64,000 nt of DNA from Dehalococcoidia bacterium (GTDB lineage: Bacteria > Chloroflexota > Dehalococcoidia > UBA6926): NCBI GenBank assembly GCA_034428515.1, contig DAOUHQ010000013.1, positions 82,371 to 146,370 on the forward strand, in the 5' to 3' direction. Below the pieces are notes generated by a model, which ran no database searches, was not told the origin of the DNA, and worked only from the letters and a program-made list of their open reading frames with translations. The position numbers and the translations under genes were made by a program. Of this stretch, positions 29,629-32,600 are shown piece after piece (the stretch's first letter is position 1; every line of letters begins with the position of its first letter).

Positions 29629-32600
29629 CTACTCTACAATCACGACATGGAAGTCGTCTTGATCAAACTCGTGAGACCCATAGACGCGGCGGGCTGGGAA
29701 GATAAATGCGTGCCCCAAACGAACACCTCTACTGCTAAAATACGCAGGTTTCTTGATCTTGGTACTAAGTGCGGGCGTGGTGGTAACTTCACTCTCTATG
29801 TTGCGAGTCGCTCTAAGCACTGGGCCCGTCAGGATAACCTTGTCAATCTCCTCATTGACGCAACTGGGAATCAGAGTCCAGCTTACGGTTATGTATTCAT
29901 CACCAATGTGAGCCCTAAGAGAAGTCGTATCTATCCGGGGTAGCGGCTCCGCACAGACCTTGTATCGCGGTTCTTGCGCAGCGTCAGTGATGTGTTCCCG
30001 TGTAATGGGCCATCCCTTATTGTTAAATTGGGCTACTGCCCAAGTACGTTGAGCAGCCTCGCTGCTGAGCCAAGAAATCGATGTCGAATTCCAGAATTCC
30101 GTCGTATTGGCCAAGCAATCGCGTCTTTCTGAACCCAATTTATCCAAGCAAACTGCATCAGCGTAGAAGAGCGAGTCTGACAGATGTTTGTTCCTCGGGT
30201 TCCAGGCACTGTCCGGGTCATCTCCTGCCGCTGAGTTGTCAATGAGGCGTAAGCTACCGAATGCAAGATCATGCTTAAGGCAGCCTGCTATTTGTGCTGC
30301 ATTGTGATTTAGATCAACATTATTCGGGGGGGGGAGAAAGATGCGTATGGCGGTTGAGATGAAGCTTCTGATGTCAGTCTCCCATGTGCATTCGAAATCC
30401 TGTCCATCAAGCCACATACCTTCCTTCTGCTCGTCTGTGTCATCCGGATCAACGACCTTCTCCTTGTAAGTGTCTAGCAGCGTTGAGTTGGCGTTAGAGT
30501 CCACTATAGGCCGCGCCAAGTCGATCCAAAAACTGTGCGGTGTCTGGAAGGTGAGGCAGTTGAGAGTATCCAGCCTCTGTTGGAGTGTCGCCTTCCTCGG
30601 GTCGTCGGCCGCGCCTATGCCCGCACGACGGAGACATATGCCAACTTGGTCCTCTCCCTGCCCATTGGCTCCATTCCCCCCTGAATTCCCACCCGTGTTG
30701 CCCTGAACAGCCGGCTCATTCGCCAAGATGCTGGCTGCTGGAACGATAAAGTCCTGGATCGATTGCTTTATCTGTACTTGGCTCGTTATGTAGGTGATGA
30801 ATGATTGTCCCGGCTTACTGGCGAGGAAGGCGTCGATGGCTGCAGCGTTCGTGCCGGTGGTGCGGATGGTGGTGAGAGTCGTTGAGAATGATGACTCGAT
30901 TGCCGTCCATGCCGTATCCAAGTCTCCCTTGCAGCCCTCAACAACATCTAGAGTGGTAGGGTCGTCCTCAGTTTCAAGCAAGGCAGCCAGAGGGCTACCT
31001 ACCTCGTACCCTGTCATGAGGGCGGTGAAAGAGCCGTCGGAACTCCCGGTCGTGCAAGTGAGCAACGCCGATTCTTTGTCAAGCAAGACTTTCCTGTGCT
31101 GCGGAAGTTTGTCCGCTTGCCCGGAGGGGCCGGGATCGGGTGTGGCTGTTGGCGTCACGAAGTTGGCAGCCAAGGCATCAGTAATTTCACGTAAAGTTGA
31201 GCCAAGGTTCCACGTTACATAGACAGGTTCCGAGAAGTAACAGTCCGTGTCCGCCGAGTTTTCCTTGACGATGACGCGAATTGACTTGGTTGTTGCCGAT
31301 GTGGGATTCAGCTCGTGTGTAGCCGATGTGGCGTTTTGGACATTGGTGCACACCTCGTCGTCGAGTGCTGGCGTCTGCCAATGATAGTAGTTGAACGTCG
31401 TGCCCACTGGTCCATCCATTCCGGCTGTGAGGGTGACTTTACGTTCGGCCGTCGTCCCAGTGGTGATGGGGAAAGGATTATCGGCGGAGATGGAGACGGT
31501 GACGGGCCTGACCTCAAGGTAGACCCAATCTCCCGCGACAACGTTATCGTTCGAATCGAGGAACGTGGCGATGACGAAGCCGCCGCCATTGTTCTCGAAA
31601 GCGCAGGCGTGGAGGGTGAACGTCGCCGTGTGGATCGTCTTCCCCGCAGCATTGACGTCCTCGGACTCCTCGACGTCGGAGCAGGTGGAGTTGAAGCCGA
31701 GGTCGGAGTCGGTCGTGCTGCTCTCGCCGCCCTCCGCGCCGTAGGCCTTGACCTCGATCTCATAGGAGCCGGTTGTTGGGAGGTCGTCGGCGGTGACGGT
31801 GAGGGTTATCTGCTCACCCTCGTAGAGGGGAGATCGTTCGCCGGAGATACTGAGGGTGACAAGGGGTGTGGACTCCTGGACGTCGGCGGACCACTGGCTC
31901 CAGCTTTTCGTGCCGCCGACTTCCTTGACATAGTGGGTGCCGTCGCCGCGGAGCCGGAGGGAGAAGTGGTACCCGGTGTTCGCGGTGAGCCCTGTGATGG
32001 TGTGGGTGATGTCGCCCGTAGCGGGAATGGTGATCTCAGTGCCCTCGGTCCACGTCTGCACACTGTCCGTGCGGTGACGGATCTGGTACGAACCGACGCC
32101 GTCGACCCTGTCGATCGAGAAGGTGACGCTGGTCGCCGTCTTGGCATACGCCCTGTTCAGGTCGGGTGTGGGTGGGACGCCGGTAGTGGAGACGAGGGAA
32201 TGGGACCAGTCGCCCCATTCGGCGGCATGGGTTGTGTTGTTGCCGTAGGATCGTGCCCGGAACTCATACATCGTATCGCTCGTAAGAGAGCTCACGGTGA
32301 GCGACGTGGTGGTGGTTTCCGTGGGGGTGCTCCAGGTGCCGCCGGAGGTTCTGTACTGAACCTGATACTTCGCCGCACCGGAGACGGCGTCCCACGAGAG
32401 ACTCATCGTTGTGGGCTGGACGGTGCCGCGCAGCGTCGGTGGCGGAGCAGGGGGATATGCCCACCTGAGCGTGAACAGGTCAGACGTTGCCGTCACACCC
32501 GAGCTGTACGTAACTCTCACCCTGTGCGTCAAGGTAGAGGGACGGTCTGAAAGATGCCTGTCCGTGGAGGAATTGGAATCGGGACGCCACCAACCACTTG

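Follow-up and report, generated by a model that had tools for sequence, protein, structure and literature searches.

Introduction

Some antibacterial phospholipases are encoded beside an immunity gene. Those delivered by type VI secretion systems (T6SS) comprise Tle1-4, which are alpha/beta hydrolases with a GxSxG motif, and the PLD-like Tle5, and their Tli immunity proteins are periplasmic. A different domain, Tox-PLA2, with the phospholipase A2 (PLA2) fold of structure 1kp4, was described as a polymorphic-toxin domain of many phyla, Chloroflexi included, and read as lipid-hydrolysing (Zhang et al. 2012, PMC3482391). Its published motifs are DxC[ST], CxxHxxxYxN and a further C, and that survey lists no immunity family for it. 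Our full-text literature search found no other paper on this domain class, and nothing specific on such a family in Dehalococcoidia or sponge Chloroflexi. Here we describe a PLA2-like domain near the C-terminus of a giant protein of 2,421 amino acids (aa), together with the small membrane protein gene that follows it, in 64,000 nucleotides of a Dehalococcoidia bacterium (assembly GCA_034428515.1, contig DAOUHQ010000013.1, positions 82,371 to 146,370). This whole stretch is called the window.

Dehalococcoidia are abundant and almost wholly uncultured, and little is known of their competition or interaction. The reading that we favour, and hold to be moderately probable, is that the C-terminal part of the giant protein is a PLA2-like polymorphic-toxin effector module, that the small gene is its immunity gene, and that both are carried as cargo of an integrative conjugative element (ICE).

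Results

A conserved domain family in Dehalococcoidia

The first-pass annotation of the window reported a PLA2-like motif, GCLKHDLAFGSL … NKHLSDSLFYADAVC…C, in the giant open reading frame (ORF), and the motif is present there. The translation of the ORF (29629-36894, minus strand) contains AAQIAGCLKHDLAFGSLRLIDNSAAGDDPDSAWNPRNKHLSDSLFYADAVCLDKLGSERRDCLANT, and the longer C-terminal stretch reads AAQIAGCLKHDLAFGSLRLIDNSAAGDDPDSAWNPRNKHLSDSLFYADAVCLDKLGSERRDCLANTTEFW. The histidine is His2208 (codon cat, 30273-30271) and the aspartate is Asp2209 (codon gat, 30270-30268), exactly where they had been placed. As for the second helix, D-x-x-F-x-x-D is there as described, but the x-x-x-C spacing given for it matches neither the window nor the Streptomyces violaceoruber PLA2 (PDB 1FAZ). 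The window has D-x-x-F-x-x-D-x-x-C, with 2 residues before the Cys, and 1FAZ has D-x-x-F-x-x-D-x-x-x-x-C, with 4. Taken alone, C-x-x-H-D is not above chance: the six frames of the window contain it 8 times, where 4.3 are expected. A single instance of the compound motif C-x-x-H-D…D-x-x-F-x-x-D…C is found in the window, and 200 shuffles gave 0.

Using the last 392 aa of the giant protein as query, we found seven homologues. We scanned 1.84 billion cluster representatives with a profile of the 238-aa core, and 227 proteins matched at E<=1e-3, 130 of them at E<=1e-30. The proteins are 245-3,186 aa long, and the domain lies almost always 100-130 residues before the C-terminus. Scanning a single genome for each GTDB species, we found 34 loci, all of them in metagenome-assembled genomes (MAGs) that carry the label Dehalococcoidia, apart from one labelled Chloroflexi.

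Conservation was counted over 116 full-length family copies, with residues numbered as in the window. Four residues (C2169, C2205, H2208 and N2235) are kept in 116/116 copies, two (D2209 and D2240) in 115/116 and three (D2228, C2249 and C2260) in 114/116. D2246 is kept in 108/116, with Glu in 5 more, and the F of F-x-x-D after D2240 in 91/116. The His/Asp pair singled out by the annotation is therefore conserved in homologues. The aromatic residue at His+4 is also retained (Y in 58, W in 30 and F in 20 of the copies), and is F in the window. The first part of the family signature is W-L-x-[YF]-G-[DN]-W-x-C-[TS] … C-[LR]-K-H-D-V-A-[YWF]-x-S-L, and the rest is L-D-x-A-W-N-P-R-N-K-x-L-A-D-x-x-F-x-x-D-I-x-x-x-G-C … C … W-P-[VI]-T-x-x-D.

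A second architecture was seen in five loci, where the PLA2-like domain is found near the N-terminus of 900-1,500-aa frames (around position 10000 in L030, L034, L036 and L038 and around 4000 in L039). These frames continue for about 1,000 aa after the domain, and have no membrane partner gene downstream.

Relationship to secreted phospholipase A2

In terms of Pfam, the family points to a single entry. Sub-threshold matches to PF09056 (Phospholip_A2_3) were obtained for 1/8 and later 9/35 members (best E 0.0013). This was by far the commonest match, and no other Pfam family was matched by more than one member. Searching the 35-sequence profile against all 177,635 distinct PDB sequences gave exactly two matches at E<=10, both to secreted PLA2: 4AUP (E 0.076), an entry labelled 'group XIII', and 7YGK (E 0.25).

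We compared the family with the S. violaceoruber PLA2, using a query sequence identical to 1FAZ. Against this single sequence, the hhalign probability was 8 % for 8 family sequences and 52 % for 35. When both sides were deep alignments (116 family sequences, and 120 PF09056 proteins with four PDB PLA2s), it rose to 94.8 % (E 5.2e-8), and the 86 matched columns correspond to 1FAZ residues 30-122. The controls, one reversed and 20 column-shuffled PLA2 alignments, scored 9-18 against the real 52.4, with probabilities of 1.1 % or less. The PLA2-side search gave only close Streptomyces PLA2s (76-100 % identity), so the PLA2 profile has low diversity (effective sequence number, Neff, 2.2) and a more diverse profile might score higher.

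The alignment maps Cys45, Cys61, His64, Asp65, Asp85, Cys96 and Cys107 of 1FAZ to C2169, C2205, H2208, D2209, D2240, C2249 and C2260. These seven PLA2 positions correspond to seven of the most invariant columns of the family, with their order preserved. In 1FAZ, we take His64 and Asp85 to be the catalytic pair, Asp65 to be a Ca2+ ligand, and Cys45-Cys61 and Cys96-Cys107 to be disulfides.

Judged from these alignments, the core is very probably a remote homologue of the Streptomyces-type secreted PLA2 (PF09056, PDB 1FAZ/1KP4). The annotation's term "PLA2-like" is thus supported as remote homology to prokaryotic and fungal secreted PLA2, and not as membership of the curated family. Our analysis defines a lineage-restricted family, invisible to Pfam and NCBIfam, that forms a deep branch of the secreted-PLA2 superfamily.

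The first AlphaFold model, made for the 392-aa C-terminus with 8 sequences, had a mean predicted local distance difference test score (pLDDT) of 40.5 and was unusable. The second AlphaFold 2 (AF2) model (aa 2090-2319, 39 sequences) reached pLDDT 82 and a predicted TM-score (pTM) of 0.80, with twelve helices and no strand. Of two successive long helices, the first (aa 2199-2218) is predicted to carry His2208 and the second (aa 2233-2248) Asp2240. This helical model agrees with an all-alpha core of PLA2 type.

Gene pairing and locus organisation

The gene that follows the giant ORF encodes a product with 5-6 hydrophobic segments, which belongs to no Pfam or NCBIfam family. Homologues of this gene are found directly downstream of the module in 27/39 gene pairs (the window and 38 loci). 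It defines a polytopic membrane partner family that was previously unlisted.

A six-frame profile search revealed tandem pairs of module ORF and membrane gene on the same strand in L009, L010, L013, L016, L017 and L019. The downstream module ORFs are shortened. They begin in repeat remnants or just before a junction motif, and have no signal peptides. Membrane genes also occur in runs of their own, with 7 in L015, about 11 in L020, and 3-6 in L010, L016, L022, L032 and L035. The copies within one array are 24-75 % identical. The arrays of L015 and L020 lie at 10901-15695 and at 5804-8226 and 10789-16065, respectively.

The junction motif, S-E-P-[VI]-[YH]-V-T-W-D-E-W-x-I-V, is present 150-200 aa upstream of the core in 52/73 members. 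Considering the paralogues of L019, L009 and L010, identity is 89-99 % over the 100 aa before the motif, 47-88 % over the next 158 aa (the 'pre-toxin' region) and 37-49 % over the PLA2-like core and C-terminus. This combination of junction, divergent C-terminus, adjacent immunity-like gene, orphan cassettes and arrays is the organisation of a polymorphic toxin system. The annotation had proposed either a membrane-attacking effector or a helper of the conjugation channel, and the first, which fits the toxin/immunity-like arrangement of the loci, is the better of the two.

The base composition of the giant gene changes in the same region. The G+C content at third codon positions (GC3) is 0.72-0.87 over aa 500-1800, and 0.50-0.64 onward from the 100-codon block that holds the junction motif. 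For the membrane gene, GC3 is 0.47. This fall over 29007-31500 suggests that module and partner were acquired or exchanged apart from the stalk.

Architecture of the giant protein

The giant protein starts with a Sec-type signal (aa ~28-68), which contains the single hydrophobic segment of the protein (aa 33-68) and ends in …GGLFRADA|QV, looking cleavable. The Sec signals of full-length homologues end in A-Q-A. Next come a Pro/Thr-rich linker (aa 182-226) and about 10 FN3-like repeats of ~107 aa, with further Ig-like domains (Pfam fn3 E 8e-19, 5 stretches). The pre-toxin region was helical in the first, low-confidence model (pLDDT 40.5). The C-terminal beta-rich domain is possibly involved in membrane or receptor binding. 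Coordinates are given in Table 1.

The FN3-like repeats (33000-36000, minus strand, aa ~230-1400) are of two alternating types. Each ends in YYFRV … A-P-x-C-P, and a Cys pair recurs at strict periodicity (~107 aa).

An N-terminal membrane anchor, with the domain as a distal tip, was considered and rejected, as the A-D-A|Q end and the AQA-type signals of the homologues indicate cleavage. In the annotation, the domain was placed in the tip of the giant protein. It is indeed near the C-terminus (aa 2090-2319 of 2421), but the beta-rich domain of ~100 aa comes after it. As the N-terminus has the look of a cleavable Sec signal and not of a stable anchor, either end may be distal from the cell.

The N-terminal parts of family members vary, with fn3, cadherin, Big_9, PKD, and LRR with a reprolysin metalloprotease. 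One locus (L003, 5107-10768) combines reprolysin metalloprotease, LRR and fn3, and P0047 and P0051 also have variable N-terminal parts. In L003 the gene is called as two pieces, of 1,582 aa and 255 aa, and the shorter piece starts inside the PLA2-like domain. Fragments of this kind, or orphan cassettes, make up many of the database 'proteins' of the family.

The giant protein recurs, identical in all 2,421 aa, in L040 (JGI 3300002734, contig PetF_10000428, 35 kb), again beside an ImuB-like gene. As this is a separate metagenome contig, the element or organism was assembled independently.

Table 1. Features of the giant gene, its partner and the surrounding element, in window coordinates.
Feature	Position	Strand	Remarks
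Giant ORF, 2,421 aa	29629..36894	-	Signal, linker, FN3-like repeats, Ig-like domains, conserved C-terminal module
Junction motif FSEPVYVTWNL, aa 1887-1897	31204..31236	-	Start of conserved, exchangeable C-terminal module
Helical 'pre-toxin' region, aa 1898-2064	30703..31203	-	Conserved; aligns with homologues P0001-P0007
Gly/Ser/Asn-rich linker, aa 2065-2089	30628..30702	-	Approximate onset of strong paralogue divergence
PLA2-like core, predicted all-helical, aa 2090-2319	29938..30627	-	Family, hhalign, AF2 model
Core stretch homologous to 1FAZ 30-122, aa 2158-2293	30016-30423	-	hhalign
His2208-Asp2209 of C-L-K-H-D	30268..30273	-	Align to His64 and Asp65 of S. violaceoruber PLA2
Asp2240 in N-P-R-N-K-x-L-[AS]-D helix	30175..30177	-	Aligns to Asp85 of 1FAZ
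Four Cys	30115..30390	-	Align to Cys45, 61, 96 and 107 of 1FAZ
C2169	30388-30390	-	Aligns to Cys45 of 1FAZ
C2205	30280-30282	-	Aligns to Cys61 of 1FAZ
C2249	30148-30150	-	Aligns to Cys96 of 1FAZ
C2260	30115-30117	-	Aligns to Cys107 of 1FAZ
C-terminal beta-rich domain, aa 2320-2421	29632..29937	-	Strands in first model, pLDDT 50-64
206-aa polytopic membrane protein	29007..29627	-	Candidate immunity protein; start 1 nt after giant ORF stop
TrbL/VirB6, PrgI-like, VirB4/TraC, coupling protein, Replic_Relax/MarR relaxase-like	17376-27178	+	Type IV secretion system (T4SS) and relaxase-like genes
ImuB-like Y-family polymerase and DnaE2 error-prone polymerase cassette	37451-42071	+	Between giant gene and recombinase
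Large serine recombinase	42975-44630	+	ORF end overlaps tRNA-Val
tRNA-Val (44573-44649) and adjoining tRNA-Met	44573-44835	-	Probable integration site

Genomic context

The giant gene and the small gene (29.0-36.9 kb) are convergent to the T4SS genes. They are placed between the relaxase and the recombinase, which puts the toxin-like pair within an integrative conjugative element. Beyond the tRNAs are housekeeping genes (dxr, sufB and an ABC substrate-binding protein).

As for the other loci, homologues of VirB4, the coupling protein, TrbL or PrgI are found in 0/39 within 10 kb of the domain, even at E 0.05. A relaxase-like gene adjoins the giant gene in 2/39 loci, L006 and L008, which come from one genome, and L006 also has a serine recombinase 61 % identical to that of the window. 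From this neighbourhood result, the general biology of the pair is independent of the T4SS, though the pair recurs as cargo on such elements.

The left part of the window contains other genes. A 1,039-aa protein (655-3774, minus strand) with SIR2-like, nSTAND5 NTPase, TPR and cold-shock domains is encoded in a block of 50 % GC, against 60-68 % elsewhere, and looks like an anti-phage defence gene. Next, a 67 % GC block at 4000-14000 carries a helicase (4846-7674) and a CHC2/Toprim primase (12918-14039). As the composition of this block differs from both flanks, the left part of the window is a mosaic.

Discussion

Proposed mechanism

In the mechanism that we propose, the giant protein would be exported by Sec, and its repeat stalk (FN3 here; cadherin, PKD, LRR or metalloprotease elsewhere) would present or release the module. 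The module consists of the 'PVYVTWDEW' junction, the helical pre-toxin region, the Gly/Ser linker, the PLA2-like domain, predicted to be helical and disulfide-rich, and the small beta domain. His2208 and Asp2240 would act as catalytic dyad and Asp2209 as Ca2+ ligand, and the phospholipids of a neighbouring cell would be hydrolysed.

The target membrane may be directly reachable, since many Dehalococcoidia have neither peptidoglycan nor outer membrane. Dehalococcoidales and SAR202 are reported to have lost the dcw genes of cell-wall synthesis, and D. mccartyi to be without a peptidoglycan layer (PMC10608941). With the cytoplasmic membrane exposed in such cells, no import pathway would be needed, and the protector would, on the same grounds, need to be integral to the membrane. 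The 206-aa polytopic protein (29007-29627), putatively translationally coupled to the giant gene, could shield the producer's own membrane as an immunity protein. Diversified cores and partner repertoires fit competition or the discrimination of kin, and cells that keep the element would also be favoured where the pair is on an ICE. The pair would be cargo between relaxase and serine recombinase, and not a component of the transfer apparatus.

Points against this reading

Several observations weigh against this proposal. The first concern the PLA2 assignment. The window copy has no Pfam match at E<=10, and the Phospholip_A2_3 model, by which the annotation had suggested checking it, does not detect it. 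A PLA2 hidden Markov model (HMM) run without filters gives it 2.5 bits, so that the PLA2 homology rests on the family profile. The window copy also has no match in NCBIfam or the PDB, and the first 8-sequence alignment gave none against the PDB (phmmer/hmmsearch).

Two motifs depart from the published pattern. The Ca2+ loop reads [DN]-W-x-C-[TS] (D in 80 and N in 21 of the 116 copies) and not D-x-C-[ST], with its Asp one residue further from the Cys, and hhalign puts a 3-residue gap there. The Asn of CxxHxxxYxN is never present, the residue at His+6 being Ser, Thr or Gly.

In terms of structure, Foldseek searches of the pLDDT 82 model against PDB and BFVD returned no PLA2 and nothing at E<=1, although small helical domains are hard for this method and the PLA2 core makes up less than half of the model. 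The annotation had expected an all-helical PLA2 fold. The predicted model is indeed all-helical, but the PLA2 fold is not confirmed at structure level.

As for the toxin organisation, the 'toxin' core is followed by a further domain of ~100 aa, and every C-terminus in our set has the same fold, unlike in classical polymorphic toxins. All loci were gathered via the PLA2-like domain itself, and the shared fold may be a consequence of how the set was collected. Lastly, the argument of an exposed membrane is drawn by analogy from the Dehalococcoidia reported above, and lipase activity, target and immunity function are inferred.

Alternative readings

A role as effector or adhesin towards a eukaryotic host is unlikely. 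The stalk would bind the host, the PLA2-like domain would hit host membranes, for example in resisting phagocytosis, and the partner would give self-protection. The eukaryote-like adhesion repeats at the N-terminus (fn3, cadherin, LRR, reprolysin) would suit this role. So would the identical protein on the JGI contig PetF_… and one locus from an 'SB0664' bin, names that we take to point to marine sponge microbiomes. Against this, the rapidly diversifying cores, matched with divergent membrane-protein arrays, indicate bacterium-versus-bacterium specificity, and a host-directed lipase would have no need of an immunity-gene repertoire.

We give just as little credence to a function in anchoring or docking. 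Here the PLA2-like and beta domains would dock onto the membrane of their own cell, or onto the small polytopic protein, and so tether a secreted adhesin, in a cell without peptidoglycan for anchoring of the sortase type. Catalysis would be vestigial or serve lipid attachment. Such a tether would explain why no other anchor is evident in a protein whose N-terminal signal looks cleavable, and it would suit a constant C-terminal module behind a variable N-terminus and a tightly coupled partner gene. The near-absolute retention of His/Asp/Asp in 116 diverged copies, however, argues for catalysis. Cassettes that are shortened and lack a signal, and partner genes arrayed 7-11 at a time with no adhesin gene, would also be unexpected for a tether. 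To our knowledge, secreted PLA2 chemistry has no acyl-enzyme intermediate able to support self-lipidation.

It is quite improbable that the domain is unrelated to PLA2, namely a helical, disulfide-rich domain specific to this lineage that resembles C-x-x-H-D and D-x-x-F-x-x-D by chance. The failure of the window copy to match Pfam, NCBIfam or PDB sequences significantly, the Foldseek result and the chance frequency of C-x-x-H-D alone would all fit a coincidence. A coincidence is hard to reconcile with a profile-profile score far above the 21 controls, with PDB matches of the family profile that are only PLA2s, and with seven functionally defined PLA2 positions falling in order on the most invariant columns.

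We consider it very unlikely that the pair is a machine for cell-cell membrane contact or fusion in peptidoglycan-free Dehalococcoidia instead of a killing device. A surface fibre would hydrolyse the lipids of a partner cell locally, opening or fusing membranes for exchange of DNA or cytoplasm, with the membrane protein as receptor or regulator. This would explain the recurrence on relaxase-bearing elements.

Least probable of all is the annotation's conjugation helper, a T4SS adhesin or lipase that would remodel the recipient membrane so that the channel docks on a peptidoglycan-free cell: the giant gene does lie 2.4 kb from the relaxase-like gene and near those for TrbL, PrgI, VirB4 and the type IV coupling protein (T4CP), and L006 and L008 repeat the relaxase adjacency (L006 with its related recombinase), but it stands outside the T4SS operon and convergent to it, in a place typical for cargo, none of the 39 other loci has these T4SS genes within 10 kb, and multi-copy arrays, orphan cassettes and membrane-gene runs have no rationale in conjugation.

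Significance

The PLA2-like toxin and immunity reading suggests a simple form of contact-dependent antagonism without import machinery, acting on a target membrane unshielded by peptidoglycan. The locus also presents an integrative conjugative element that carries such a toxin-like system as cargo. Furthermore, the junction motif and the locus grammar offer a means of annotating the 'hypothetical' giant genes and fragments in these MAGs, of which there are hundreds.

Comparison with known systems

The likeness to the Tle/Tli pairs of the T6SS is that of an antibacterial phospholipase, here a putative one, with an adjacent immunity gene. None of the GxSxG, PLD-like, periplasmic-immunity or T6SS-delivery features applies here.

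With secreted PLA2 (PF09056; 1FAZ/1KP4/1LWB, 4AUP, 7YGK, 8K1W), the domain shares a helix bearing C-x-[KR]-H-D, a following helix bearing N-K-x-x-x-D-x-x-F-x-x-D…C, a further Cys, and an aromatic-rich last helix. The order of the four Cys is the same, and both domains are disulfide-rich, secreted and all-helical (here as predicted). At 230 aa against 120, the Dehalococcoidia domain has about double the size. It adds an N-terminal helical part carrying L-N-C-L-x-F-x-T-P-H-S-F-W, and five residues, A-W-N-P-R, are inserted ahead of N-K. The Ca2+ loop reads D-W-x-C and not D-x-C, and His+6 is not Asn. Whereas secreted PLA2s are free precursors of ~150 aa, this domain lies near the end of 250-3,200-aa proteins, below the Pfam threshold and unmatched by Foldseek.

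Tox-PLA2 is similar in being a C-terminal PLA2-type domain of large, secreted proteins that are filamentous or made of repeats, as judged here by sequence. The differences are the polytopic membrane partner family with its arrays, the 'PVYVTWDEW' junction, the trailing beta domain and the altered motifs. This comparison was made by the published motifs, and the Chloroflexi examples of Zhang et al. may belong to this clade.

Lastly, the loci resemble contact-dependent growth inhibition (CDI; CdiA-CT/CdiI, where CT is the C-terminal toxin region) and Rhs-CT/RhsI systems. The common features are a large exported protein, a conserved junction (cf. VENN, PxxxxDPxGL), a divergent C-terminus, a small gene directly downstream, orphan pairs of CT and immunity gene that share the junction, and immunity-like arrays. 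Here, by contrast, there is only a Sec signal, with no TpsB/CdiB, T6SS or type VII secretion system (T7SS) partner. The CT fold is constant in the examined set, the N-terminal stalk is variable too, and the putative immunity protein is a multi-pass membrane protein. The hosts are Dehalococcoidia, at least some orders of which have no peptidoglycan, so that no import step would be needed. What these loci add to the described systems is the partner family, the junction motif and a polymorphic-toxin-like organisation restricted to Dehalococcoidia.

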